A stretch of DNA of 64,000 nucleotides, taken from positions 192,001 to 256,000 of the forward strand of contig CAVSZB010000005.1 of NCBI GenBank assembly GCA_963732385.1, in the 5' to 3' direction. Each line of letters starts with the position of its first letter. Positions within the stretch are counted from its first letter, which is position 1. The position numbers and the translations under genes were made by a program. The stretch comes from an uncultured bacterium (GTDB lineage Bacteria > Krumholzibacteriota > Krumholzibacteriia > LZORAL124-64-63). Shown here one piece after another: positions 35,824 through 49,004 of the stretch. The notes below the pieces were generated by a model, which saw only the letters and a list, made by a program, of their open reading frames with translations, was not told the DNA's origin and did not search any database.

Positions 35824-37440
35824 TCACTCCCCGCCGCCTCCCAGGGCCGGTCCCTTGATCTCCGGCAGCTGCCAGACACTGTCGATTACGGTGCCATCCA
35901 CCCACTTGATGGCCGCCACGACGCGATCGACCGTTTCCGGCGGCTGGGGCTTGCCGCACAGCGCCTCGACCTCGGCCTTGATCTCGGTCAGCGGCCGGAT
36001 CGGCAGCGAGGAGCCGCGCAGCTTCGCCAGCAGATCCGTGCGCCGCGGGTTGATCGCGATGCCGCGCTCGGTCACGATCACGTCGACCAGCTCGCCCGGA
36101 CCGCACAGCGTGGTGACCCGGTCGACGAGGACCGGGATGCGGTCGCGGAACGACGGGATCGGCAGGATCGTGCACCTGCCGAAGAGGCAGTTCTGCCAGC
36201 CGCCGATGCCGTGCAGCAGGCGGCCGTCGGAGTGGGTCACAACGTTGGCGTTGAAGTCGACGTCGACCTCCGTTGCGCCGAGCACCGTGGCATCCACCAT
36301 CGACGCGAAGTTCCCCTTGCCGTGCCAGTTGTAGCTGGTGAACGGCGAGGTGTTGACGTGCCCGGGGTTCTCGCGCATCGAGCGGACCCCTTCGAGATCG
36401 AACGTCTGCCCGTCGAGGATGTAGTCGGTCAGCCCCTCCTCGAGCATCTGCACGAGGTACTGCGTGGAGCCACCGCGCACGAAACGGGCCTTGATCCGAC
36501 GCTCGCGCATGATGTCGCGCAGGAACAGGGCGAACGACAGCGCGGTGCCGCCGGCGCCGGCCTGGAACGAGAAGCCGTCGCGCACGATGCCGGCCTCGTC
36601 GCAGAAACGCGCGGTCAGCTCGGCGATCAGCAGGCGGTCGGGCGACTTGGTGATCTGCGTCGTGCCGGAGACGATCTTGGCAGGGTCGCCGATCTTGTCC
36701 ATGACCACGACCTGGTCCACGTGGTTGCCCTGGATCTGCCACGGCACGCAAGGGAACGGCACCAGGTTGTCGGTGACGACGATGACATGGTCGGCGTACT
36801 CGCTGTCGGCCAGCGCGAAGCCGATCAGGCCGCAGGCCGACGGCCCGCGATCTCCGGTGGCGTTGCCGAACGGGTCGGCGGTCGGCGCGGCAATGACGGC
36901 GATGTCGATGTGCACCTCGCCGTCCTGGATCGCCTGGTAGCGCCCGCCGTGCGAGCGCAGCACGCACATCCCCTTCATTTTCCCAAGGCTGCAATAATCG
37001 CCGAGCGGGCCGTTCATCGACCCTTCGATCCAGCGCACGACGCCCGATTCCAGCAGATCGATCACCGGGGCGTGCACCGGGAACGACGCGCTCGGAAACC
37101 AGCGGATGTCCTTGACGCCCATCTCCGCGGCGGCCTTGAGCACGGCGTTGGCCACGAGGTCGCCGTTGCGCAGGTGGTGGTGCGTGCCGATGGTCATGCC
37201 GTCGCGCAGGCCGGCCTTCTTCAGGGCCGCCTTGAGATCGGGCGCGACCTTGTTGCCGTCCAGCGGGTACTGGCCGCAATGCGCAATCGGCGGCACCGCC
37301 CGGCGTCCCTGCGGCACATGCTTCGCCACCCCCTGGTACGGGATGGCCGCCTCGCCGTTGATGAGCGTCGGCACCAGCCGCCCGGCGGCGTTCTCCTGCA
37401 GCGGCACGCCGGCCGCGTCCTTGCGGATCGCCTTGCTCAT
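35824..37440 (-). CDS. citF: Citrate lyase alpha chain / citrate CoA-transferase
   Basis: GLRDGMTIGTHHHLRNGD, LRSHGGR, FSFQAGAGG, LGATEVDVDFNANV and VDVIVTERGIAINPRR. Confidence 0.9.
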   Translation of the reverse strand: MSKAIRKDAAGVPLQENAAGRLVPTLINGEAAIPYQGVAKHVPQGRRAVPPIAHCGQYPLDGNKVAPDLKAALKKAGLRDGMTIGTHHHLRNGDLVANAVLKAAAEMGVKDIRWFPSASFPVHAPVIDLLESGVVRWIEGSMNGPLGDYCSLGKMKGMCVLRSHGGRYQAIQDGEVHIDIAVIAAPTADPFGNATGDRGPSACGLIGFALADSEYADHVIVVTDNLVPFPCVPWQIQGNHVDQVVVMDKIGDPAKIVSGTTQITKSPDRLLIAELTARFCDEAGIVRDGFSFQAGAGGTALSFALFLRDIMRERRIKARFVRGGSTQYLVQMLEEGLTDYILDGQTFDLEGVRSMRENPGHVNTSPFTSYNWHGKGNFASMVDATVLGATEVDVDFNANVVTHSDGRLLHGIGGWQNCLFGRCTILPIPSFRDRIPVLVDRVTTLCGPGELVDVIVTERGIAINPRRTDLLAKLRGSSLPIRPLTEIKAEVEALCGKPQPPETVDRVVAAIKWVDGTVIDSVWQLPEIKGPALGGGGE

Positions 37441-38675
37441 GACGTTCCCCCCTCGCCGCCTGCGGTCGGCTCGCGCCAGTCGGCCGCCAGCCGGCCGGCC
37501 GCCAGGGCGGCCGCCACGGTCGCCTGCGCCCGCTTGACCACCGGCGGATCGATCATCTTGCTGCCAAGCGAAACCACGCCCAGCCCCCTCGCCTGCGCCA
37601 CCTCGAAGGCGCGCACGATCTTCGTCGCCTTCTCGATCGCCGCCGCCGGCGGCGCGAAGGCGTCATGCACCACCGGAATCTGCCGCGGGTGGATGCAGCC
37701 CTTGCCCACGAAGCCGAGCGACCGCGCCTCCTCCACGGACCTGCGCAGCGCGTCCATGTCGGCCACGTCGGAAAAGACCGTGTCGATCGGCTGGACGCCG
37801 GCCGCGCGGGCGCCGTTGAGCACCTGCGCGCGCGCCCAGAACGACTCGTGCCCCTCGAGCGTGCGCTCGGCGCCGATGTCGGCGGTGTAGTCCTCGAGAC
37901 CGATGGCGAGCCCCACGACAGTGTCGGTCGCGCCCGCGATCTCGTACGCCAGCCACGCGCCGCGAGCCGACTCCACGATCGGCATCAGCCAGACCGGCGC
38001 GGCGCGATGGTGCGTTGCGCGCAGCGCGTCGATGCGATCGCGCGCGGCGACCACCTGTTCCGGAGCCTCGACCTTGGGCAGCAGCACGAGCTGCACGCCG
38101 TGCGGCACGATCCAGTCGAGGTCGGCGAGCCCATGCTCGCCCTGGTTGATGCGTACCATCCGCTCGGCGCCGTGGAAATCGACCACGCGCAGCGCGTTAC
38201 GCACCAGCACCCGGGCCGCGTCCTTCTCGGGCGGCGCCACCGAGTCCTCAAGATCGAGAATCAATCCGTCGGGCTGGTGCAGACCGGCGTTGGCCATGAA
38301 CTTGGGCTCGTTGCCCGGCAGGTAGAGCCGCGTGCGGCGCAGCCGTTCGCGCTCGCTGCCGCCGGCGGTGTCGGCGCGCGCGGCCGGCAACCAGACGCCG
38401 GCGCAGTCGGGCCAGGCACGCTTCACGGCCGCCTCGAGCCGGGCGTCGAGAACGAACGGCAGGGCCCCCTGATCATCCACCTCGATCGCTGCATGCGCGA
38501 CGCCGAGGGCGTCGCAACCCGCCTCGATACGCCGGCGGATGTCCGCCCCATAAAGCGCCTGAACCTTGCTCTTCAGATCGACCGTGATCCCGCCGGCGTC
38601 GCGGATGTCGATTCCGATCCAGCAGTCGGACCGGACCTCCTTGCCGCGGCGGCCCGCCTCCCCACGTCGGGTCAT
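37437..38675 (-). CDS. citE: Fusion of citrate-lyase acyl-carrier-like domain (CitD) and citryl-CoA lyase beta chain (CitE)
   Basis: The N-terminal ~88 aa has the CitD pattern (AG..SD, S.V..LYG..I, DQGAL.FVL.ARLEAAV.RA). The remainder has RRTRLYLPGN, DLEDSV, IGLEDY, PIDTVF and KGCIHPRQ. Confidence 0.88.
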   Translation of the reverse strand: MTRRGEAGRRGKEVRSDCWIGIDIRDAGGITVDLKSKVQALYGADIRRRIEAGCDALGVAHAAIEVDDQGALPFVLDARLEAAVKRAWPDCAGVWLPAARADTAGGSERERLRRTRLYLPGNEPKFMANAGLHQPDGLILDLEDSVAPPEKDAARVLVRNALRVVDFHGAERMVRINQGEHGLADLDWIVPHGVQLVLLPKVEAPEQVVAARDRIDALRATHHRAAPVWLMPIVESARGAWLAYEIAGATDTVVGLAIGLEDYTADIGAERTLEGHESFWARAQVLNGARAAGVQPIDTVFSDVADMDALRRSVEEARSLGFVGKGCIHPRQIPVVHDAFAPPAAAIEKATKIVRAFEVAQARGLGVVSLGSKMIDPPVVKRAQATVAAALAAGRLAADWREPTAGGEGGTS

Positions 38676-39072: not shown

Positions 39073-39750
39073 CTATCCGTTCCGCCATTTAGCCGCCATC
39101 CCCCACGCCCAGAGTCCGACCGTGAGAATGGTCGTGAAGGTCCCGACCAGACGCGGCTCAAGACGCAGGGGGGCGGACCCGGAGACTCTTTCGCGCAGGC
39201 TCCGGCCGAGAGCGAAGCCGACGGGCACCGCCAGCGCGCACCCGGCCGCGGCCAGGCTCCCCCCCACACCGACATGCTGCCAAAAGCCGCCGATCCCCTG
39301 CCCGCGCCAGAATTCGGAGCGGAAGACGAAGATCATGGCAAGAAAGAACAGGACATGGCCGAGGTAACAGGCAAGGGCAGCTTTCAGGCCGGCCAGACGC
39401 AAGGACTGGCGGTTGCCCGGGATCGAGACGGCCGCGGCGCGCGTTGCGGGCGACCCCCAGCCGAAAACCAGGTCGAAGGACAGGCCCAGCAGCACGATCC
39501 CGGTGAGGTGACAGGCGAAGAAGGGCACATTGAGAAATTTGTACAACATAGCCAGGGAGGCGATGACCGTGGAGCCGCCGCGATGGGGAACGAATTGCGC
39601 GGCCACGGCCAGCAGGAAGAACCCGATCACTGTCAGGTAGACCGAGGCGAAAGGAACCGCGGCCGAGTAGAGCGCATTCCCCAGGATCGCCTCGCTGAAT
39701 CCCCACAGACCGCCGAAGAGAAGAATGGCCGGCAGATGTTCCTTCTTCAT
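39073..39750 (-). CDS. Integral membrane protein (about 6 TM; ECF S-component-like), last gene of the AOR operon
   Basis: FGGLWGFSEAILG and following hydrophobic helices; the ATG at 39750 overlaps the upstream TGA (ATGA). Confidence 0.65.
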   Translation of the reverse strand: MKKEHLPAILLFGGLWGFSEAILGNALYSAAVPFASVYLTVIGFFLLAVAAQFVPHRGGSTVIASLAMLYKFLNVPFFACHLTGIVLLGLSFDLVFGWGSPATRAAAVSIPGNRQSLRLAGLKAALACYLGHVLFFLAMIFVFRSEFWRGQGIGGFWQHVGVGGSLAAAGCALAVPVGFALGRSLRERVSGSAPLRLEPRLVGTFTTILTVGLWAWGMAAKWRNG

Positions 39751-40277
39751 GCGCGTGTCCTCCTGTTCCATTCCGCCTGGGCCGCCAGCACCTCGAGCAC
39801 TGGCCCTATCATTGCGGGTTCAAGTCCCTTCCGGGCCAGCGTCAATTGCCAGGCGGCCGGATCCGGGCCGGGGCCTCCCCGCTCCAGCACCACCTGGGCC
39901 AGGGAACGGAGCAGGTCCGCGTCGGGACGCGCACCGGGCTGAAACCCGTGGCCCCCGGCCGAAACTTCATCTTCAAGAAAGATAATTATGTCGCCCCTCC
40001 CGCGGCGGGCGAGCGCATTGCTTTCCACCACGAGGTGGCGGTGGCCCACCCCCTCCGCCTGCCGGAGAAACGCGTCCATCTCTTCGTCGGTCCGGAAGTA
40101 GCTCTCCGCTTTGCCGGGTCGGCGCTGGCTCGTCCCCTGTTTGGCGTAGACCGCCCCCGGCAGGATGCGGCTGAGCGCCAGGGCCACCTGCGTCTTGCCG
40201 ACCCCGCGGCCAGCTCCGCAGACGATCCAGAGCAGCGGCCTCCCGGGGGGCGACCCGACATCGGTCAACGGAAACAC
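39747..40277 (-). CDS. Small P-loop NTPase (MobB-like accessory protein)
   Basis: Walker A GAGRGVGKT; Walker-B-like LVVESN; operon context. Confidence 0.62.
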   Translation of the reverse strand: MFPLTDVGSPPGRPLLWIVCGAGRGVGKTQVALALSRILPGAVYAKQGTSQRRPGKAESYFRTDEEMDAFLRQAEGVGHRHLVVESNALARRGRGDIIIFLEDEVSAGGHGFQPGARPDADLLRSLAQVVLERGGPGPDPAAWQLTLARKGLEPAMIGPVLEVLAAQAEWNRRTRA

Positions 40278-40567
40278 CCCAGCTGACAGTCATGGATCTT
40301 GATCTTGAGCAGGTTCATGAGCCGGCCGATGGAGCCCGCCGGCGCGTGGCAGACCGCCGCCATTTCCAGGGCGATGGAGCAGAGGATGCGCCCGCCCGGG
40401 ACCAGGCGCTCAAGGTCGCACTCCGCGGGCTGCGCTGCCTCGACGAGATTGAGCTGTCCGCCGGGCGCGTCGACCAGCGTCCAGGGCAGCGCCTCGGCGT
40501 CGATGAATTCCTGAAGGGAGGCGCGCCGTTGCGCGCCGACACCGATGGTGATTGCCGTCGGGTTCAT
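40265..40567 (-). CDS. Small Cys-containing protein with C-terminal CQLGCF motif
   Basis: GRILCSIALEMA..IGRLMNLLKIKIHDCQLGCFR; tightly packed in the operon. Confidence 0.7.
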   Translation of the reverse strand: MNPTAITIGVGAQRRASLQEFIDAEALPWTLVDAPGGQLNLVEAAQPAECDLERLVPGGRILCSIALEMAAVCHAPAGSIGRLMNLLKIKIHDCQLGCFR

Positions 40568-40573
40568 AACCGG

Positions 40574-40774
40574 TCACCCTCCGTGGGCCAGGTGAAATAC
40601 CGCAAGGCTCGCCCCGTCGGGCAAAAGCCGCAGGGAGTATTCGTCCTCGGGCACCAGAACGCCGTCCACGGTCACGGTCATGAGGACATAGTCATAGCGG
40701 AGGATGTCCAGCACATCCTGGACGGTCAGCCCGTCCCTCCACTCGATCCGATCCCGATCATTGACGATCAGCAT
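40574..40774 (-). CDS. thiS: ThiS/MoaD-family sulfur carrier protein
   Basis: 66-aa ubiquitin-like protein ending in GG; GGAGGAG RBS. Confidence 0.88.
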   Translation of the reverse strand: MLIVNDRDRIEWRDGLTVQDVLDILRYDYVLMTVTVDGVLVPEDEYSLRLLPDGASLAVFHLAHGG

Positions 40775-41386
40775 TTACCCGCCGCACTCCTCCAGGCCCC
40801 GCCGGACCAGGAACTCCACCGCCGCATTGGCCTGCAGGTTGGCCGCAATGGCCACGCGGGGGGCGCACAATCCCTCGCTCGAATCCGATTCGCCGTCGCC
40901 GCACATGACGATCATACCGCTTCGCCGCACGCGCAACGCTTCGGTGTTTCCCAGGCCGGACACGCCGCTCGCCGCCACTACCGGACGGTCGGGAAAGGCC
41001 CGGCACCAGGCCTCGATCAGCCATTGCTTGCTCTCGGCCCGGTCGAAAGCCTCGATCAGGACCTCGGCCTGGGCGAAGATCGCAGCGACGTCGGCCGGCT
41101 CCAGCCGCAGATCCCGCGCGCTGATCCGGACCTCCGGATTGATCGAACGGAGCCTGGCGGAGAGGGCCTCGGTCTTGAGCCGGCCCACGTCCTCCAGGAA
41201 ATACTGCTGCCGGTTCAGGTTCGATTCCTCGACCCGGTCGAAGTCGACCAGGATGAGCCGCCCGACTCCCGCCCGCACCAGAGACAGGGCGGCCTGGCTG
41301 CCCAGCCCGCCACAGCCGGCAATTCCGACCGTCGACCGGCGCAGGATCGCGGTCGAACCGGGGACATTGCAATCGAAGATCCCCAT
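40775..41386 (-). CDS. thiF: ThiF/MoeB-family sulfur-carrier adenylyltransferase
   Basis: GIAGCGGLGS, LVDFDRVEESNLNRQ, EAFD and APRVAIAANLQAN. Confidence 0.9.
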   Translation of the reverse strand: MGIFDCNVPGSTAILRRSTVGIAGCGGLGSQAALSLVRAGVGRLILVDFDRVEESNLNRQQYFLEDVGRLKTEALSARLRSINPEVRISARDLRLEPADVAAIFAQAEVLIEAFDRAESKQWLIEAWCRAFPDRPVVAASGVSGLGNTEALRVRRSGMIVMCGDGESDSSEGLCAPRVAIAANLQANAAVEFLVRRGLEECGG

Positions 41387-41418: not shown

Positions 41419-43416
41419 TCAGGATTCCTGGTGCCCTGCCACGATCCGGACGATCTCCGGCAGGTCGATGCCGAGTTCCTTCAGCCGCGCCAAAGACGGC
41501 ACGCCGTTCGGCGTCCAGCCGCGGGCCTGGTAAGCCGCGTCGGTCACCTGCCGGTACTGGTCCTCGCGGTGCCGGCGGAGGATCGCCATCTTCTCGGCCG
41601 TACTTCGACCCGCCGGATCGACCTTGAGGATTTCGAGGAGTTGTTTGTCGTAGCGCTCGGCGCGGGACTCGTACTCTTCCGGCGTGACCGGCCCCATGGC
41701 ACGGTACGGTGGAATGTCGTCCTCGCGCTTCCCTTTGCCCAACAGAACCGAGAGGCAGCGCTGCAGATTGTACACCCGGGCCGACTGGGCCAGCATCGAC
41801 GCCTCGTCGAGCGGGCGTCCGGTCATGCCTTCGAAAAACCTGAAGTAGTTCTCGACGTGCCCGGGAATCTTGGCCGCCAGCTTGGGCGGCAAAGTCTTGT
41901 TGTCGGCGGGGACCACGTCATTCCAGATGATCTTGCAGAGTCCCTGCAGCCCGAACCAGGTCCGCCAGAGGGGGAAGTAATACAGGGCCTCGGCCTTGTC
42001 CTGGAAGGTCGGAATCTGGTTGTTGACCATATCCATGAAGATGAGCCAGGCCTCATCGTGCTGGGGCCCCTTGATGGCCAGCGTATACCCGGCCTGCTGC
42101 GCGAGGGACTCCTTGGAGACGTACTCGGAGTACTCCAGCCCCTTCGCCTCCATCCCGATGTCCTGCAGGAACGCCGGATCGGCCCCGTACTCGGCCACCC
42201 ACTTCCGCTTGAGCCAGCGGATTCCCTGCCCCACGTCGACGCCGAAGCCCTCTCCGCGCGCCGTCTGGTGCAGGAGTTCGAGCACCGCGTCGCCGGCGCC
42301 GAAGTTGAGCTTCAGGCCGCCGGTGCGGGTCTCGTCGATCACGCCGGCTTCGAAAGACTCCATCACGAAGGCGATGCAGGTCGCCATCGAGATCGTGTCG
42401 AGGCCGTAGGTGTCGCAGTAGAAGTTGAACTCCACGCAGAGGTCGGCGTCGAAGCAGCCCATGTTGGCGCAGCCGGCAGCCGTTTCGTACTCGGGGCCGT
42501 CCACGATGACCCGCTCCCCGGCGTAGGGGCCGGTCCGCAGGAGGTAGCCGTCGACCGCCTTGGCGCAGGCCATCGAACAGCCGTGCCAGCAGCCGTCGGC
42601 CGTGCCCTGCGTGAAGAAGTCCTGCTTCAGGACCTGCTTGTCGAGCCGGTAGGTCTCGGGATGGGAGCCGAAACGGTAGTTCATGACCGGCAGCAGGTCG
42701 TACTTGTCCATGACACCGACGATATTGGCCGTGCCGACCTCGCGCATGCAGCACTGGGACTTGTCCAGGGTCGCCATCTCGGCGTTGATCTTCATGCCGT
42801 GGTCGCGGATCAGCTGCGGGTTGGCCGGCCGGTTCAGGTCGTCGACGATCTCGATGGCTCCGGTCGGACAGACATAGGCGCACGAGGTGCAGCCGATGCA
42901 GTGCGGGTCGACCTCGTTGAACGGCATGGTCAGGTGGCGCTTGATGCCCCGACCGGCAAAGTCGAGGATGCGCTGCAGCACGAATTCATCGCAGGCCCGG
43001 ACGCAGTGCGTGCAGAGGATGCAGGCCTGGGGATTTTCGTCGGTCCATTCGCTGCGAAAGCGCGACTCGGTGACTCCGCACTGCGCGGCGACCTCGCGAA
43101 TGACCGGCACATTCGGCCAGCGGCCGAGGTACATCTCGGCCAGCACCTTCCGATGGTTTTGCACGCCCTCCGAAGCTGTTTCGACCTTCATTTCACCCCG
43201 GACGGGATAGTTGCAGGCCGTGACCAGGCGCTTCCGCCCGCGCACCTCCACCTCGCAGACGCAGAGCCGGCAGTTTCCCCCGGGAACGAGATCCTTGTGG
43301 TGGCAAAGGGTCGGCACCTTGAATCCGGCCTTTTCCACGGCGGAGAGGAGGTAAGAATCCCTGGCCGCGACGATCTCGACACCGTTGACCGTGAGCTTGA
43401 TTTTGGGGTCGGCCAT
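41419..43416 (-). CDS. Fusion: NuoG/HydA-type N-terminal [2Fe-2S] + 2x[4Fe-4S] domain joined to aldehyde:ferredoxin oxidoreductase C-terminal domains 2-3
   Basis: N-terminus: PTLCHH..GNCRLC..LVTAC, CILCTHCVRAC, CIGCTSCAYVCP. Then AOR: GCWHGCSMAC, GPEYET, DTYGLDTIS, KGLE, GPQH, GLCK and RGWTPNGVP..L.ELGI. The ATG at 43416 overlaps the upstream TGA. Confidence 0.9.
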   Translation of the reverse strand: MADPKIKLTVNGVEIVAARDSYLLSAVEKAGFKVPTLCHHKDLVPGGNCRLCVCEVEVRGRKRLVTACNYPVRGEMKVETASEGVQNHRKVLAEMYLGRWPNVPVIREVAAQCGVTESRFRSEWTDENPQACILCTHCVRACDEFVLQRILDFAGRGIKRHLTMPFNEVDPHCIGCTSCAYVCPTGAIEIVDDLNRPANPQLIRDHGMKINAEMATLDKSQCCMREVGTANIVGVMDKYDLLPVMNYRFGSHPETYRLDKQVLKQDFFTQGTADGCWHGCSMACAKAVDGYLLRTGPYAGERVIVDGPEYETAAGCANMGCFDADLCVEFNFYCDTYGLDTISMATCIAFVMESFEAGVIDETRTGGLKLNFGAGDAVLELLHQTARGEGFGVDVGQGIRWLKRKWVAEYGADPAFLQDIGMEAKGLEYSEYVSKESLAQQAGYTLAIKGPQHDEAWLIFMDMVNNQIPTFQDKAEALYYFPLWRTWFGLQGLCKIIWNDVVPADNKTLPPKLAAKIPGHVENYFRFFEGMTGRPLDEASMLAQSARVYNLQRCLSVLLGKGKREDDIPPYRAMGPVTPEEYESRAERYDKQLLEILKVDPAGRSTAEKMAILRRHREDQYRQVTDAAYQARGWTPNGVPSLARLKELGIDLPEIVRIVAGHQES

Positions 43417-45299
43417 CACCGTACCTCCACGGCGCCGCGGGTGCAGGTCTCGACGCAGATGCCGCACTTGATACACTTGCTGTACAGTATGGAGTGGGTC
43501 TTGCGGGGCTCGCCCTCGATCGCGCCGGTCGGGCAGGAGCGTCCGCAGGCGGCGCAGCCGTCACACAGTTCCGGGAGGATCGCGTAGGTGATGAGCTCCC
43601 TGCAGACCCCGCCCCGGCAGCGCTTTTCCCGGATGTGCTCCAGGTATTCGTCCCGGAAATAGCGCAACGTGCTCAGGACCGGGTTCGGAGCGGAACCGCC
43701 CAGCTGGCAGAGGCTCGTGTCGCGGATCGTGGCGGAGAGTTCCTCCAGGAACTCGAGGTCGCCCTCGCGCCCCTGGCCGTTGCAGATACGTCCGAGCGTG
43801 CCCGCCAGGGCGAAGAGACCTTCGCGGCAGGGCGTGCATTTGCCACACGACTCATCGACCAGGAAATCGATGAAGTACCGGGCCACATCGACCATGCAGG
43901 TATGATCATCCATCACGATCATCCCGCCCGAGCCCATCATCGACCCCGCCTCCGTCAGGGAATCGAAGTCGACCTGCATGTCGAGGAGACTCTCGGGCAG
44001 GCAGCCGCCCGACGGACCGCCCGTCTGCACCGCCTTGAAGGTCCGCCCCTCGGGGATCCCGCCGCCGATGTCGAAGATGATCTCCCGGAGCCTGATCCCC
44101 ATCGGGACTTCGACGAGCCCCGTGTTGCGGATATCGCCCACCAGGGAGAAGACCTTGGTGCCGGAGGAGCCGTGCCACGGGTTCCCGCTCCCATCACCGG
44201 TGCCGATCGCGGCGAACCAGGCGGCCCCCTTCTCGATGATGACCGGAATGTTGGCCCAGGTTTCGACATTGTTCAGGACGGTCGGCTTGTCGCGAAAACC
44301 GTACTCGACATTGTGCACATACTTGGCCCTGGGCTCGCCCGCGCGGCCGGACATCGAGGCCATCAGGGCCGTCGATTCTCCGCAGACGAAGGCCCCCGCG
44401 CCGCGGTGCACCGCGATGTCGAAAGAGAACCCGGAACCCAGAATCCCCGTCCCGAGAAGTCCCTGTTCACGGGCCTGCCCGAGCGCGATGTGGAGCCGCT
44501 CCATGGCGAGCGGATACTCCTTGCGGATGTAGATGAAACCCTCCCGCGCCCCGACGGCGAAGGCGCCGATCAGCATCCCCTCGATCACCGAGTGGGGATC
44601 GGTCTCGATGATACTGCGGTCCATGAAGGCGCCCGGATCCCCTTCGTCGCCGTTGCAGATCACGAACGCGACCTCGCCGCGTTCCTGCCGCGCCTTGAGA
44701 CAGGACTCCCACTTGACGCCCGCGGGAAAACCGCCGCCTCCGCGCCCGCGCAGACCCGAGGCGATGATCTCCCGGATGACCTCCTCGGGTGACCGGGAGG
44801 TCAGAACCTTCCGAAAGGCCTGATATCCGCCGCGGGCTATGTAGTGCCCGATCTGCTCGGGGTCGATGAGTCCCTTGTTCCGCAGGGCGATCAGTTGCTG
44901 CTTGGCGAAGAATCCGATCTCGTCCATCCGGCGGCTGACGACGCCACTCACCGGATCCCTGTACAGGAGGCGCTCGACGACCTGGCCGTTCATTAGATGC
45001 GAATCGACGATCTCCTTCAGGTCCTGCGGACCGACCTTCTGGTAGAAGACACCCTCCGGCTGCACGACCACGATGGGGCCCATGGCGCAGAACCCGTTGC
45101 ATCCGGTCTGCACCACCAGGTAGTCCCGCTCCAGGCCCCGCTCGCGGAGTTCGGCGTTCAACCCGTCGCGCACGCTGTACCCGCCGGCCGAGAGGCAGCC
45201 CGTGCCGGTGCAGACCATGAGCATGGCCTTGTAGCCCGCCTGGAGCTTGGTCTGCTCGGCCGCGATCCGTTCCAGGTCCGTGATGTCGAGCCTAGGCAT
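43416..45299 (-). CDS. NADH/FMN-binding NuoF/HydB-type subunit, long form with N-terminal thioredoxin-like and C-terminal 2x[4Fe-4S] domains
   Basis: CTGTGC..CNGFC; GLRGRGGGGFP; CNGDEGDPGAFMDR; GAGAFVCGE; GGPSGG; ESCGKCTPCR..LCQLG; H..EKRC..GVC; CDGCAACGRSCP and CIKCGICVETC. Confidence 0.93.
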   Translation of the reverse strand: MPRLDITDLERIAAEQTKLQAGYKAMLMVCTGTGCLSAGGYSVRDGLNAELRERGLERDYLVVQTGCNGFCAMGPIVVVQPEGVFYQKVGPQDLKEIVDSHLMNGQVVERLLYRDPVSGVVSRRMDEIGFFAKQQLIALRNKGLIDPEQIGHYIARGGYQAFRKVLTSRSPEEVIREIIASGLRGRGGGGFPAGVKWESCLKARQERGEVAFVICNGDEGDPGAFMDRSIIETDPHSVIEGMLIGAFAVGAREGFIYIRKEYPLAMERLHIALGQAREQGLLGTGILGSGFSFDIAVHRGAGAFVCGESTALMASMSGRAGEPRAKYVHNVEYGFRDKPTVLNNVETWANIPVIIEKGAAWFAAIGTGDGSGNPWHGSSGTKVFSLVGDIRNTGLVEVPMGIRLREIIFDIGGGIPEGRTFKAVQTGGPSGGCLPESLLDMQVDFDSLTEAGSMMGSGGMIVMDDHTCMVDVARYFIDFLVDESCGKCTPCREGLFALAGTLGRICNGQGREGDLEFLEELSATIRDTSLCQLGGSAPNPVLSTLRYFRDEYLEHIREKRCRGGVCRELITYAILPELCDGCAACGRSCPTGAIEGEPRKTHSILYSKCIKCGICVETCTRGAVEVR

Positions 45300-46602
45300 G
45301 GTCCGCACCCCCCGGAGCCCTTTTCGCCGCCATCTTCTTGACCAGCCGGGCCACGTCTCTGGCTTTGACGTTTCCCACGATCTCGTTTCCGAACCGCACC
45401 ACCGGAGCGAGGCTGCAGGCGCCGAGACAGGCCACCGGTTCGAGGCTGTACCTGCCGTCTTCGGAGGTCTCGCCGGCCTGGATCCCAAGCACCCGCTCGA
45501 AGCCCGCCAGAATGAGGGCCGAGCCCTTGACATGGCAGGCTGTCCCCATGCAGACCTGGATCACCGTCTCGCCCCGCGGTTCGAGGCTGAAGGCCTTGTA
45601 GAAGGTGGCGATGTGATAGAGGTAAGCGGCCGGCACGCCCGTTTCGAGACAGATCTCATCGAGGGCCGTCTTCGGGAGGTGCCGGAACCGCTCCTGCACA
45701 TCCTGAAGCATCTCGATGACGTATTCCGGGTCGTTGTTCCACTTGCGGACAATGGCCCGGACCTCCTCCACTTCGTTCGCGCAGGTCAGCAGAGACAGGC
45801 GCTTCGGAGTGATCTGGGCCGCCACCTTGTTCTCGGCGATGCGCCAGGCGGGGGTGATGCCAGGATTCTTGATCACGAGAGCCTTGAGTTTCTTGTCGCG
45901 GAAGACCGTGCCGATTCCGCCGCGCCCCGCCTGCTTGAGCCGCGCCACGCGCCGGCGCCAGTCCCAGAAGGAGAAGTTCAAAACCCCCATCCGCGTGTGC
46001 TCGGCGCCGCGTCCGGCGGAGACGACGGCGATGTTCCGCATGTCGAGTTCATCCGCGGCGTACATCCTGGTCAGCTCCTCAGCCAGGATGTGCGAGTCGA
46101 CGCTCTCGAGCGGGGCGGCCTCGATCGTGATCCGGCGGGCGGCCGCGTCGATGGCGATGATGGTCTCCTGCGACGCCTTGCCGACGATGGCCAGCGCATC
46201 GAAACCTGCGAATTTCAGGAAAGGGCCGAAATACCCCCCGACATTGCAGTCGATCACGATGTCGGTCAGAGGAGAGATGGCCGTGACCAGCGTCTTGCCC
46301 GAACCGGGAAACGACGTCGTGCCGCCGAGCGGGCCGGAGCACAGGCAGATCGGATTCTCCGGGCTATCCCACTTCGTGTCCGCGCTGATCTCCTGGAGCG
46401 TGATCCAAAGGTCGAAGCCCTTGCCCCCGGTCCAGAGTTCCTTCATCTGCTCCGTCACCGGATGCAGGGTGATCTCGTTCCGGCCGAGATCGATCCGGAG
46501 CCAGCGACCGGCATAGCCCCGGTAAAGCTCGACGGGGTCGTAGACCAGCTCCTGGAGCAGGCAATGCGCGCTCCGCATTCGTTCCGTGTCGTGCATGGGC
46601 AT
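45292..46602 (-). CDS. Fusion: aldehyde:ferredoxin oxidoreductase N-terminal domain joined to NuoE/HydC [2Fe-2S] subunit
   Basis: AOR_N: GYAGRWLRIDL, GGKG, GPLGG, SPLT, NVGGYFGPFLKFAGFDA, AGRGGIGTVF..K.LKALVI. Then NuoE: IATFYKAF, VCMGTACHVKG, VACLGACSLAPVV. GGAG RBS before the ATG at 46602. Confidence 0.9.
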   Translation of the reverse strand: MPMHDTERMRSAHCLLQELVYDPVELYRGYAGRWLRIDLGRNEITLHPVTEQMKELWTGGKGFDLWITLQEISADTKWDSPENPICLCSGPLGGTTSFPGSGKTLVTAISPLTDIVIDCNVGGYFGPFLKFAGFDALAIVGKASQETIIAIDAAARRITIEAAPLESVDSHILAEELTRMYAADELDMRNIAVVSAGRGAEHTRMGVLNFSFWDWRRRVARLKQAGRGGIGTVFRDKKLKALVIKNPGITPAWRIAENKVAAQITPKRLSLLTCANEVEEVRAIVRKWNNDPEYVIEMLQDVQERFRHLPKTALDEICLETGVPAAYLYHIATFYKAFSLEPRGETVIQVCMGTACHVKGSALILAGFERVLGIQAGETSEDGRYSLEPVACLGACSLAPVVRFGNEIVGNVKARDVARLVKKMAAKRAPGGADHA

Positions 46603-46746
46603 GCCGCTGTCTCCCGGGTAGTCGGGTATCCGCCCCGGAGAGGCTGCGGCCGGAAGCACGGCCACACTCCCCGGCGAGTCGCCCACCTGCAACTTCAGAA
46701 AGTGCCCGGCGAATGGACCCCAAGCGGGCAATCAGGATTGAGCTGG

Positions 46747-46775
46747 AATTTAGGCCAGGCGCAGGGCGGGGTCAA
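46747..46775 (-). promoter_or_regulatory. Candidate sigma70 promoter of the split-AOR operon
   Basis: Minus strand TTGACC (46775-46770), 17 nt spacer, TAAATT (46752-46747); the -35 lies inside a hairpin (GGCGGGGTCA...TGACCCCGCC) downstream of dcp. Confidence 0.45.
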
Positions 46776-46841
46776 CGACCGGGTGGCAAGCCCGCACGGT
46801 CCGCTGACCCCGCCACGAGGAACGGCTGCTGCTGAAGACCG

Positions 46842-49004
46842 CTAACGCGCCTGTGACTCCGGGATTGCCGGCGTCTCTGGCAACAGGCCCCGTTTGCGCA
46901 GGAGCGGTTCCACCGAGGGATCCTTGCCCCGGAAACGGCGATACGCTTCCGCCACGTCGCCGGTTCCGGCGCGTTCCAGGATGTTCGCCCGGAAAGAGGC
47001 GGCGGTGGCCTGGTCGAAGATCCCCTTCTCCCTGAATGCCTCGAAGGCATCGTTGTCCAGCACCTCTGACCACAGGTACGAGTAGTACCCGGCCGCGTAT
47101 CCACCGTTGAAAATGTGGTAGTAGCTCGGCGTGCGGTGGATCGAGGCGGCGTAGCGCGGCATCCCCATGCGCTCGAACGAAGCCTTCTCGAACGCCCCGG
47201 CATCCACTTCGTCCGGCGCGGTCAGGGTGTGCCAGTCGAGGTCGAGCAGCACGGTGGAGACCATCGCCACGGTGCCCAGCCCCTGATTGAAGGTCTCGGC
47301 CTGCTTGATCTTCGCGATGACCTCGTCGGGCAGGGGCTCGCCCGTCTTGTAGTGGCAGGCGTAGACCTTCAGGACCTCCGGCTCCAGCGCCCAGTGTTCC
47401 ATGATCTGGGACGGCAGCTCGACGAAGTCCCACGGCACGCCGCCGAGCGCCGAGTAGTGCACGCGGGTGAGCAGGGAGTGCAGGGCATGGCCCAACTCGT
47501 GGAAGAGGGTCAGCGCCTCGCCGCGGGAGAGCAGGGCCGGAGCATCCCCGGTGGGCGGCGTGAAGCTCGCCACGTTGGTTACGATCGGCCGGATGTCCTT
47601 GCCGTTGCGCACGCAGGCGTCACGGTAACCTCCCGACCACGCGCCGGCCCGCTTGCCCGCGCGCGGGAACAGATCCATCAGCAGCACGCCCAGGTGGGTC
47701 CCGTCCGCCTCCTTCACCTCGAAAACGCGCACGTCGGGGTGGTATCTGGGCGCGTCCTTCAACTCGGTGAAGGTCAGCCCATAAAGCCTGGTGGCGACGG
47801 AAAACGCGCCTGCCCGCACCCGCTCGAGGGGGAAGTAGGGACGCAGCGCCTCCTCATCGAGGTCGAAGCGAGCCTTCTTGAGCTTCTCGGAGTAGTAGCT
47901 CCAGTCCCACGGCTCGATCTGCCCGCCCTTGACGTGCTCGTCGAGCATGGTCTGCAGGACCCTGGCGTCCTCGTCGGCTTTGGCAACCGCCGGCGCCCAG
48001 AGCTGGTTCACGAGGGAGTACACGTTCTGCGGTGTCTTCGCCATGTACTCCTCGATCTGGAAGTCGGCGAAGGTCCGGTAGCCGAGGAGCCGCGCCCGTT
48101 CGGCGCGCAGGCCGGCGATGCGGGCGACAATACGATTGTTGTCGCGCGCGTCACCGTGATCGGCGCGGGTCCTGTACGCGGTCCAGAGCTGGCGCCGCAG
48201 TTCGCGGTTGTCGGCGTAGGTCACGAATGGGCGCGCGGAGGAGGGCTGCAGGGTGAAGACCCACTTCCCCTCGAGGCCGGCCCCCTTCGCCGTCTCGGCG
48301 GCGGCCGCGATCGCCTGCGGCGACAGGCCGGAGAGGTCCTCCGGATTCTCTATCACCAGCTTGAACGCGTTGGTCTCGGCCAGAAGGTTTTCGCCGAACG
48401 AGCTGGAGAGCACCGCCAGCTCCTGGTTGATTTCCCGGAACCGCTCCTGCTGCCCGGAGCCCAGGTTGGCGCCGCCACGCACGAACCCCTTGTGCGTCTC
48501 ATCCAGCAGCTTGCGCTGTTCCTGATCGAGCGCGAGGAGGTCACGCCCGGCCCACACGGCCTTGACGCGGGCGAACAGTCGCGGGTCCAGCGCCACGTCG
48601 TCGCGCAGGGCGGCGAGCTGCGGCGACACCTCCTGCTGGATTTTCTGCATCGCCTCGTTGGTATTGGCTGAAGCAAGGTTGAAAAAGACATTGGAAACCT
48701 TATCCAGAAGCTGTCCGCCCTCGTTGAGCGGCTCGATGGTGTTGGCGAATGTCGGTGGCTCGGCGCTGGTGGCGATCGTTTCCACTTCCCGGCGTCGCTC
48801 GGCGATGGCGCGTTCGAACGCCGGCAGGAAATGCTCGACCTTGATGAGCGCGAACGGCGGCATGCCGAACGGCGTCGTCCACTCCTCGAAGAACGGGTTG
48901 ACGGCGACCGCCGGGACAGCCGTCCGGGCAGGCGCCGGCTGCCGGGCCGCGGCCACGGTCGCGCACGCACAGATCAAACCGAGAGCTGTCATGAATTTCC
49001 GCAT
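46842..49004 (-). CDS. dcp: M3-family peptidyl-dipeptidase/oligopeptidase, secreted
   Basis: NPFF..W.TPFG.PPF, YHPDV, GKRAGAW, FHELGHALH, DFVELPSQIMEHW and HIF.GGYAAGYYSYLWSE. Confidence 0.92.
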   Translation of the reverse strand: MRKFMTALGLICACATVAAARQPAPARTAVPAVAVNPFFEEWTTPFGMPPFALIKVEHFLPAFERAIAERRREVETIATSAEPPTFANTIEPLNEGGQLLDKVSNVFFNLASANTNEAMQKIQQEVSPQLAALRDDVALDPRLFARVKAVWAGRDLLALDQEQRKLLDETHKGFVRGGANLGSGQQERFREINQELAVLSSSFGENLLAETNAFKLVIENPEDLSGLSPQAIAAAAETAKGAGLEGKWVFTLQPSSARPFVTYADNRELRRQLWTAYRTRADHGDARDNNRIVARIAGLRAERARLLGYRTFADFQIEEYMAKTPQNVYSLVNQLWAPAVAKADEDARVLQTMLDEHVKGGQIEPWDWSYYSEKLKKARFDLDEEALRPYFPLERVRAGAFSVATRLYGLTFTELKDAPRYHPDVRVFEVKEADGTHLGVLLMDLFPRAGKRAGAWSGGYRDACVRNGKDIRPIVTNVASFTPPTGDAPALLSRGEALTLFHELGHALHSLLTRVHYSALGGVPWDFVELPSQIMEHWALEPEVLKVYACHYKTGEPLPDEVIAKIKQAETFNQGLGTVAMVSTVLLDLDWHTLTAPDEVDAGAFEKASFERMGMPRYAASIHRTPSYYHIFNGGYAAGYYSYLWSEVLDNDAFEAFREKGIFDQATAASFRANILERAGTGDVAEAYRRFRGKDPSVEPLLRKRGLLPETPAIPESQAR

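Follow-up and report, generated by a model that had tools for sequence, protein, structure and literature searches.

A probable aldehyde oxidoreductase divided over two polypeptides and fused to two subunits of a Bfu-type electron module in a Krumholzibacteriota bacterium

Tungsten-containing oxidoreductases (WORs) are described in Classes I to V, of which Class IV (WorABCSL and BamB-I) combines an undivided catalytic L subunit with an S subunit and an ABC core (PMC13328260, PMC12318220), and the survey of Bfu enzymes in PMC9304861 lists Wor-Bfu as 'Type 2', with extra subunits. The closest known system to the one reported here is WorABCSL (WOR1) of Acetomicrobium mobile (PDB 9mqx, PMC12318220), which likewise wires a tungstopterin catalytic unit of the aldehyde oxidoreductase (AOR) family to a BfuABC core. 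We analysed a window of 64,000 nucleotides (nt) from an uncultured bacterium of the Krumholzibacteriota (assembly GCA_963732385.1, contig CAVSZB010000005.1, positions 192,001 to 256,000 of the forward strand), in which three adjoining genes encode an AOR in two halves, the first fused to the C subunit and the second to the A subunit of a Bfu-type module. A first-pass annotation, made from the sequence alone, had picked out this locus and remarked that described bifurcating WORs use separate genes, which the accounts in PMC12318220 and PMC13328260 bear out. Our analysis confirms that the three-gene layout is real, and the split, cross-fused AOR/Bfu form, with no WorS, is a real, conserved and apparently undescribed variant.

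A catalytic subunit divided over two genes

The operon runs, all on the minus strand, from AFOR_N::NuoE/BfuC through BfuB/HydB to a BfuA N-terminus::AFOR_C, which is the HydC-HydB-HydA(N) order first proposed for it. The genes, assigned by Pfam and structure alignments, are as follows.

45292..46602, minus strand: gene 1 (protein P0001, 436 residues), AFOR_N fused to a BfuC/NuoE/HydC-type domain
43416..45299, minus strand: gene 2 (P0002, 627 residues), full-length BfuB/HydB
41419..43416, minus strand: gene 3 (P0003, 665 residues), BfuA/WorA N-terminal module fused to AFOR_C

Open reading frames (ORFs) were thus found where three translationally coupled genes had been annotated (46602-45292, 45299-43416 and 43416-41419), and they overlap. 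The stop of P0001 and the start of P0002 share ATGCCTAG, an overlap of 8 nt, and the TGA of P0002 and ATG of P0003 overlap by 1 nt (TGATG), with a GGAGG 7 nt upstream. Pfam returned the anticipated domain sets, namely AFOR_N and 2Fe-2S_thioredx in the first protein, Complex1_51K, SLBB and Fer4 in the second, and Fer2_4, Fer4 and AFOR_C in the third. AFOR_N and AFOR_C are therefore both present, but on two different polypeptides, the products of genes 1 and 3. AFOR_N occupies residues 32-245 of P0001 (bases 46509-45868, E 6e-45) and AFOR_C residues 209-650 of P0003 (bases 42792-41467, E 3e-81).

Alignment to the AOR of Pyrococcus furiosus (PfAOR, PDB 1aor) locates the cut. The N-half aligns to PfAOR residues 3-209 (E 7.5e-25), and the C-half (E 2e-16) picks up at about PfAOR residue 214, with P0003 residue 226 aligned to PfAOR 240; the subunit is therefore divided at the boundary of domains 1 and 2. 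On the P0003 side the C-half begins a few residues past the last ferredoxin motif. This agrees with the first-pass annotation, which had AOR domain 1 ending in the first gene and domains 2-3 resuming after that motif, and the interval that it gave between the halves, about 3.0 kb, also holds (45868 to 42846).

Catalytic and cluster residues are conserved across the two halves. Residues T229, E311, Y432 and H453 of P0003 correspond, in a phmmer alignment to 1aor, to PfAOR T243, E313, Y427 and H448, which PMC13328260 names for aldehyde-oxidising members of the family. All four columns are invariant in an alignment of 34 split and 33 unsplit relatives, as are the four [4Fe-4S] cluster cysteines: C276, C280 and C284 (C-x3-C-x3-C) align with the PfAOR cluster ligands C288, C291 and C295, and C494 with the fourth cluster cysteine in an alignment to 8c0z (PfAOR C494). 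The motifs named in the first-pass annotation (GPEYET, CDTYGLD, C-x3-C-x3-C, GLCK and AGRGG) are all present and invariant in the 67 relatives; for CDTYGLD in the C-half, and for NVGGYFG and AGRGG in the N-half, conservation is complete or nearly so. PfAOR is reported by its structure paper to have two DxxGL(C/D) pterin-binding motifs. The first is kept here (CDTYGLD), and the second reads FGLQGLCK, with Gly replacing PfAOR Asp489.

The WorA, WorB and WorC modules are all encoded in the operon, two of them as fusion domains. In P0001, a linker of about 25-35 residues leads from AFOR_N to the 2Fe-2S_thioredx/NuoE domain (residues 282-424, bases 45759-45331, Pfam E 4e-42), a C-terminal part that aligns to HydC (8a6t_C, E 3e-38), WorC (9mqx_C, E 2e-36) and NfnC structures. 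P0002 aligns end to end with HydB of the A. mobile NiFe hydrogenase (7t2r_B, E 2e-222), with 7q4v_B (E 1.5e-221) and with WorB (9mqx_B, E 6e-216). Its Pfam domains are Complex1_51K, SLBB, NADH_4Fe-4S, two C-terminal Fer4 and an N-terminal thioredoxin-like [2Fe-2S] piece, and it carries the flavin mononucleotide (FMN)/NADH site, a [4Fe-4S] region with the B2-site ligands and a C-terminal 2x[4Fe-4S] domain. The B2-site ligands C468, C506, H555, C561 and C566 match C438, C476, H525, C531 and C536 of the A. mobile NiFe-BfuB. According to PMC9304861, non-bifurcating homologues are without the B2-site His/Cys ligands, the C-terminal B3/B4 clusters and the N-terminal B5 domain. P0002 has the features given there for bifurcating BfuB (FMN/NADH site, B1, B2-site His, B3/B4 and B5) and keeps A202 and M204, while residue F182 of PMC9304861 is not mappable on the 7t2r_B alignment. 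Judged by its sequence, P0002 is a complete BfuB with the hallmarks of bifurcating members.

In P0003 the BfuA-like module (residues 1-199, bases 43416-42820) comprises Fer2_4 (residues 5-82) and a 2x[4Fe-4S] domain (residues 128-199) and runs unbroken into AOR domains 2-3. Its first 193 residues align to residues 3-188 of the 247 of WorA (9mqx_A, E 4e-38), with all cluster cysteines aligned; the A1, A2 and A4 motifs are present and A3 is not. The remainder of WorA consists of a zinc finger and a C-terminal helix that recruits WorS (PMC12318220), and the alignment stops where these two elements start.

The junctions recur in public sequence data. The closest public run holds a 0.23 share of the words of this stretch, and DNA contigs of a relative about 95% alike bridge the fusion points and gene boundaries in runs of two studies, answering the proposal that reads be mapped across the junctions at about 45850 and 42850.

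42731-43748 and 45605-46622: bridging DNA contig records 3 and 8 of X1
42638-43144 and 43909-46074: bridging DNA contig records 28 and 31 of X2

One study supplied two RNA libraries whose contigs, with a likeness of about 93-96%, span 28 and 26 of 30 bins and leave 42632-42807 uncovered. Joints in the reads at a minimum likeness of 88%, among them one at 44217/41792 that both RNA runs show, were taken as belonging to relatives from other organisms.

Distribution and origin of the split form

A protein search with P0003 scored at least 8000 candidates, and the best 120 clusters (660-694 residues, 68-98% identity) all carry Fer2_4, Fer4 and AFOR_C. For a survey of loci we took one genome per species and mapped the domains of the window on the best 80 loci of at least 587 relatives. 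The BfuA::AFOR_C fusion was present at 45 of these 80 and an unsplit AOR, with N- and C-parts in one frame, at the other 35, so that the operon is no one-off and its layout is frequent among uncultured anaerobes. Ten of the 45 split loci end at a contig edge before the upstream genes; in all 35 with enough upstream DNA an AFOR_N gene lies upstream on the same strand. The three-gene form of the window accounts for 14 of the 35, while in 17 AFOR_N, NuoE and a NuoF-like part share one ORF (697-1235 residues, stop to stop). A frame change inside NuoF occurs at one locus (L037) and a stand-alone AFOR_N at two (L048 and L051). At the one remaining locus (L017), labelled Myxococcota, an ORF of 521 residues (L017:3261-4823) holds the N-half followed by about 260 residues with no NuoE or NuoF match, and the BfuA::C-half gene follows directly. 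ThiF stands behind the fusion gene in 33 of the 45. The split loci bear the labels Aminicenantes, Fibrobacteraceae, Bacillota, Melioribacteraceae, Krumholzibacteriota, Eisenbacteria, Myxococcota, Elusimicrobia, Synergistia, Deferrimicrobium, Bdellovibrionales, Cloacimonadota, Sumerlaeota, Armatimonadota, Delongbacteria and Sphingobacteriales. Among the 35 unsplit loci, one that bears the label Saprospiraceae carries a TAG in frame within AOR domain 1 (L067:5260-5997).

Searched against cluster representatives, the N-half had 3926 matches at E<=1e-3 and 69 at E<=1e-30. Pfam, run on 26 of the 150 representatives listed, showed the N-half joined to NuoE (438 residues), to a full NuoE-NuoF (902 residues), or to a partial NuoE with a degenerate or missing FMN domain (520-791 residues), as well as alone (264, 278 and 299 residues, some possibly fragments); unsplit AORs among the N-half representatives reach at most 52% identity. 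The split operon is thus a member of a large, patchily distributed family with two-, three- and four-gene forms. Within the lineage of the host, only five of 40 relative genomes have a match over the AOR part, two from the same genus, in one of which TGA stops interrupt the match, and three, at 67-72% identity, from two other families of the class; the 22 genomes from other genera of the same family have none. This patchiness fits transfer or repeated loss. The broken match in the same genus (G075:C11:227503-229440) consists of overlapping pieces of P0003 at 34-78% identity with internal TGA stops. Either decay of this copy or poor assembly at that place may account for it; the genome is only 62% complete.

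Both halves have the same nearest unsplit kin, AORs of about 720 residues from Chloroflexota, Bipolaricaulota, Cloacimonadota and others (48-63% identity overall; 48-57% for the N-half and 57-63% for the C-half). In FastTree phylogenies the split sequences form one clade (34/34) with support of 0.988 for the N-half and 1.0 for concatenated N and C. With broader outgroups the N tree holds a split clade of 43 tips (support 0.967), sister to Chloroflexota unsplit AORs (support 0.99). The C-half, run in IQ-TREE under LG+C20 PMSF on 50 of 88 rows, gave a starred, unresolved trichotomy of the main split group (18 rows, support 100), a low-identity split group (five rows, support 99) and three Bipolaricaulota unsplit AORs, and in an approximately unbiased (AU) test a single split clade was not rejected (log-likelihood difference 0.14, p 0.499). 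An earlier FastTree C tree that placed L051 with unsplit rows was set aside, its support being 0.32. On these trees and the AU result, derivation of the halves from different AOR clades, which the first-pass annotation had named as evidence that would count against its reading, is rejected.

The trees also bear on how the split arose. The earliest split branches in the N tree are P0132, an N-half alone of 264 residues, and L051, which has four genes, a 279-residue N-half preceding a separate NuoE of 162 residues; in L048, of the same low-identity group, the N-half and NuoE lie in different frames. The N-half::BfuC fusion therefore looks secondary. Fused N-half::BfuC sequences form one clade (41/41) with support of only 0.712, and two-gene forms are nested among three-gene forms. 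Bfu genes are lacking beside the nearest unsplit AORs, and this, together with the C-B-A order between the halves, fits capture of a bfuCBA cassette by aor. The original suggestion that a nuoE-F-G' cassette inserted in frame into the aor linker is thus supported in part: capture of a cassette fits these results, but the unfused early N-halves argue against one insertion event that was in frame on both sides. A stepwise history would be more economical, with the root of these trees insecure: the AOR would have split, leaving a free N-half and a BfuA::C-half fusion, the N-half would then have fused to BfuC, and further fusion to BfuB would have followed, while in some lines the NADH part decayed.

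Function, cofactor supply and neighbouring genes

We modelled a complex of the N-half (262 residues, 66-row alignment) with P0003 (665 residues, 80-row alignment). The ipSAE values were 0.92, 0.93 and 0.93, against 0.00 for the best of three controls, with 378-386 contacts, at least 94% agreement of contacts between runs and a partner pLDDT of at least 90. The mark used for ipSAE is reached by 116 of 157 solved complexes and two of 215 mismatched pairs, counts that are only roughly valid here because custom alignments were used. The modelled interface takes in P0003 residues 171-214, that is, the last [4Fe-4S] motif and the linker, as a path for electrons from the AOR cluster into BfuA would require. 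The model thus joins halves which, had they been unable to meet, would have spoken against the first-pass reading. With the subunit divided as it is, the pterin site would have to form between two polypeptides, as that reading predicted. Single-chain AORs have been solved, so a pass of this kind speaks for likeness to the AOR fold and not for binding as such.

We think it probable, though well short of assured, that these genes specify a compact form of the electron-bifurcating tungsten (or molybdenum) aldehyde oxidoreductase (Wor-Bfu, 'Class IV WOR') that does without WorS; coupling to NAD+ and ferredoxin, the aldehyde substrate and assembly in trans are what we infer from strong sequence evidence and a model. 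In such an enzyme the AOR halves would reassemble on the BfuABC core, and the bis-pyranopterin site and its [4Fe-4S] cluster would form between two polypeptides. Aldehyde would be oxidised at the metal, and electrons would pass by way of the AOR [4Fe-4S] cluster to the last [4Fe-4S] cluster of BfuA (A4) and on through A2 and A1. They would arrive at the BfuB-BfuC core, with its FMN and Fe-S clusters, and this core would reduce NAD+ and ferredoxin together. The reverse reaction, acid reduction, might also take place, and a downstream ThiF gene and ThiS-like gene would serve cofactor maturation.

These two genes and the other features around the operon are as follows.

46747..46775, minus strand: promoter-like site TTGACC-17-TAAATT (consensus match only)
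40775..41386, minus strand: ThiF/MoeB-type adenylyltransferase gene, 33 nt after gene 3 (NF006395 ThiF, E 4e-66, above cut-off)
40574..40774, minus strand: 66-residue ThiS/MoaD-like protein with a Gly-Gly C-terminal end (Pfam ThiS, E 2e-5)
39073..40567, minus strand: three tightly packed or overlapping genes without Pfam or NCBIfam family
40567-40265, minus strand: the first of these, a 100-residue protein of no known family
40277-39747, minus strand: the second, a 176-residue P-loop protein of no known family
39771-39073, minus strand: the third, a 232-residue membrane protein of no known family

The promoter-like site, one of two found in the region by consensus match against 0.9 expected, lies in the 240 nt that separate gene 1 from a peptidase M3 gene upstream of it. 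A riboswitch or other RNA upstream of the operon was rejected, as Rfam gave no match at gathering score in the window and only chance-level matches at 46550-46900. The ThiS-like ORF (Pfam ThiS 25.5 bits, cut-off 22.5) directly follows ThiF and falls under the usual ORF size cut-off, so that it is readily overlooked; it resembles the 'WorX' genes that PMC13328260 describes adjoining WOR genes, and ThiF and ThiS-like genes beside WOR genes are described in PMC13328260 and PMC1779556. The three family-less genes are probably the tail of the operon, and their homologues also stand behind the split operon in L001 and L012. Atlas look-ups for the downstream genes gave weak leads to MobB (31% of the members of one cluster) and to ECF-like Trep_Strep (score 0.82), and none of 180 relatives of the membrane protein has a name or a Pfam family. 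NCBIfam holds no model for the fusions, every match except ThiF being below cut-off. No gene for a WorS-like polyferredoxin lies in the operon, the neighbours being peptidase M3, ThiF, the ThiS-like gene and the three family-less genes. Further downstream in the window (35824-38675, minus strand) lie citrate lyase genes, encoding a CitF alpha subunit and a second protein in which an acyl carrier protein-like domain is fused to an HpcH/CitE beta-subunit domain.

The host genome (3.82 Mb, nine contigs, 95.8% complete) contains exactly one AFOR_N and one AFOR_C match, both in the split operon, so that the halves have no other partner and no unsplit AOR can supply a missing half. It gave no match to MoaC, the MoaA C-terminal domain, MoaE, MoeA_N or ModA, families that were found in 10-11 of 14 control genomes. 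When the moa/moeA neighbourhoods of three split-bearing genomes were searched against it with tblastn, no MoaC was found and MoaA gave generic radical-SAM similarity only. One MoeA-like gene emerged from tblastn and Pfam.

G000:C1:142861-144009 (L092:1012-2160): MoeA-like gene (382 residues), with MoCF_biosynth, MoeA_C and only a fragment of MoeA_N

Of 40 other genomes that bear the split form, 29 yielded a MoaC match. Nine of the 11 without it also have no MoeA_N, and all 11 have no MoaA C-terminal domain, while five MoaC-positive controls had both. Among 33 genomes that carry the nearest unsplit AOR, 15 yielded such a match, and none of those labelled Cloacimonadota or Bipolaricaulota did. 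Incompleteness of metagenome-assembled genomes (MAGs) explains part of these gaps, but chance does not look like the reason for a pattern that spans whole lineages. The existence of organisms with 'orphan' molybdoenzymes is an acknowledged open problem (PMC6147048).

Several observations weigh against the bifurcating Wor-Bfu reading. The lack of matches to MoaC, the MoaA C-terminal domain, MoaE and ModA in the host, whose only MoeA-like gene has a mere fragment of MoeA_N, is a caveat on function. The second pterin motif has Gly for PfAOR Asp489 (FGLxGLCK); the unsplit kin have it too, so it belongs to the clade as a whole and did not come with the split. In some relatives the FMN/NADH part is reduced or missing, so the family is not always NAD(H)-dependent. 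The complex model, which covers the N-half and P0003 out of a heterotrimer of 1,728 residues, may pass merely because the halves resemble solved single-chain AORs, and the meeting of the halves on BfuB, across the 25-35-residue linker to BfuC and with a near-absent linker from BfuA, lies outside its scope. Lastly, the RNA contigs are a weak hint of expression, coming from the 95%-alike relative in two libraries of one study with DNA carry-over possible.

What speaks for other accounts of the operon can be set against this. The same machine could run in reverse, confurcating electrons from NADH and reduced ferredoxin so that a carboxylic acid is reduced to the aldehyde. This would let fermenting anaerobes of sediments, from whose metagenomes relatives are known, dispose of electrons or make alcohol; AORs reduce acids when given low-potential donors (PMC9295118, PMC12727526), and Bfu reactions are described as reversible (PMC9304861). 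We nevertheless hold it unlikely as the main direction: the operon has no alcohol dehydrogenase or acid-activating gene, and direction is not readable from sequence.

A plain, non-bifurcating aldehyde oxidoreductase, NAD(H)-linked or reducing ferredoxin only, in which the Nuo-like parts would act as wire and NAD+ reductase after the model of NAD-dependent formate dehydrogenases or the Class III AorABC, seems to us rather less probable still. The energetics would allow it, since aldehyde oxidation (about -560 mV, PMC9304861) can reduce both acceptors uncoupled and WOR1 is said in the review PMC12096430 to bifurcate without an endergonic step, and family members with a degenerate or absent FMN domain would suit it. 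Yet P0002 possesses every feature missing from the non-bifurcating homologues described in PMC9304861 (B2 ligands, B3/B4 and B5), and it is roughly as near to WorB (E 6e-216) as to the HydB subunits of bifurcating hydrogenases.

There is a slim chance that the substrate is no aldehyde, as in BamB, which acts on benzoyl-CoA, or that in hosts devoid of MoaA and MoaC the protein is a relic or has no usual pyranopterin. The resemblance to characterised AORs in the PDB is low (best E 4e-20), Gly stands at Asp489 throughout the clade, searches for MoaC drew a blank in this genome, in 11 of the 40 others that bear the split form and in 18 of the 33 that carry the nearest unsplit AOR, and PMC6147048 treats 'orphan' molybdoproteins as an open problem. 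However, the four aldehyde residues, the cluster cysteines and the phosphate/Mg motifs of domain 1 are invariant in 67 sequences from many phyla, which points to selection for a functional pterin site; MoaC is indeed present in 29 of the 40 split-bearing genomes, and MAG incompleteness accounts for some of the gaps. A chimeric assembly or broken gene, for which nothing speaks beyond the odd layout, is rejected with next to no residual doubt, given the same fusions at 45 of 80 independent loci, an architecture common to the 120 best protein clusters, DNA contigs from two runs of two studies across both fusion points and both gene boundaries, and intact, overlapping reading frames.

If the three genes are indeed a Wor-Bfu enzyme, a bolder proposal can be built on them, which we offer tentatively and, taken as a whole, consider doubtful. 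They would then represent a further, overlooked class of tungsten oxidoreductase, a minimal bifurcating aldehyde oxidoreductase of three polypeptides (two in relatives), whose pterin site would exist only once BfuC and BfuA have docked on BfuB, making catalysis contingent on assembly of the core. In size the class would be on a par with the described Class IV enzymes or larger, and it would operate without MoaA and MoaC in this host and in about a quarter of the others. Such operation would imply salvage of a pterin precursor or a novel maturation route, possibly involving the downstream ThiF, ThiS-like, P-loop and membrane protein genes.

Comparison with described enzymes

A literature search found no description of such an architecture, in keeping with the remark in the first-pass annotation that no characterised enzyme has it: the main texts of PMC13328260, PMC12318220, PMC12096430 and PMC9304861 do not mention a split L subunit, though supplementary tables could list such genes. 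The classification of PMC13328260 picks catalytic subunits by the presence of IPR013983 and IPR001203 in one sequence, and surveys that apply this rule cannot pick up a split enzyme. By that rule it counts 102 Class IV (bifurcating) enzymes, less than 1% of the family. The split form is left out by it, yet stands at 45 of the best 80 species-level loci, under more than 15 phylum labels and in at least 120 protein clusters.

Should it prove bifurcating, the split enzyme would consist of three chains, compared with a nanowire assembly of nine subunits, and would be tractable for structural work and for acid-to-aldehyde biocatalysis. Its four-, three- and two-gene forms, with those in which the FMN part has decayed, make up a natural series from which one might learn which parts of the Bfu core the catalytic partner needs, and the absence of MoaA and MoaC from many hosts of this AOR clade provides a concrete test case for the 'orphan molybdoenzyme' question.

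Among the described systems, WorABCSL differs from the window enzyme chiefly in its catalytic unit and in how that unit is attached. WorL is one chain of 604 residues, whereas here its counterpart is split and the halves are fused to C and A. In the A. mobile complex a separate polyferredoxin, WorS, joins WorL to WorA through the C-terminal helix of WorA, and three WorSL units form a nanowire (PMC12318220); the window operon has no WorS, and in P0003 AOR domains 2-3 sit in place of the WorA zinc finger and adaptor helix. Operon order also differs, being SLCBA or CBASL in the Class IV systems described in PMC13328260 and L(N)::C - B - A::L(C) in the window.

PfAOR, a 'Class I WOR', shares GPEYE, DxxGLD, the cluster cysteines and T243, E313, Y427 and H448 with the window enzyme, and the same three-domain fold is predicted once the window halves are joined; unlike the window enzyme, it is a single chain that reduces free ferredoxin, and sequence identity between the two is low. 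AorABC of Aromatoleum aromaticum ('Class III WOR') and BamBCDEFGHI couple AOR-family subunits to NAD(P)-linked or Bfu-like modules, as described in PMC13328260, but with an unsplit L or BamB and a separate S or BamC, and AorC is a flavin adenine dinucleotide (FAD) protein, not NuoF-like. The bifurcating HydABC and NiFe-HydABCSL hydrogenases (7t2r, 7q4v, 8a6t, 7p5h) have the C-B-A gene order and the complete BfuBC core in common with the window operon. In the 'Type 1' Bfu enzymes of PMC9304861, BfuA itself bears a C-terminal catalytic domain, as does P0003. In the window the catalytic domain on BfuA is two thirds of an AOR and not an H-cluster domain, and the remaining third is on BfuC, a division of the catalytic unit over two Bfu subunits that sets the operon apart from every described Bfu type.

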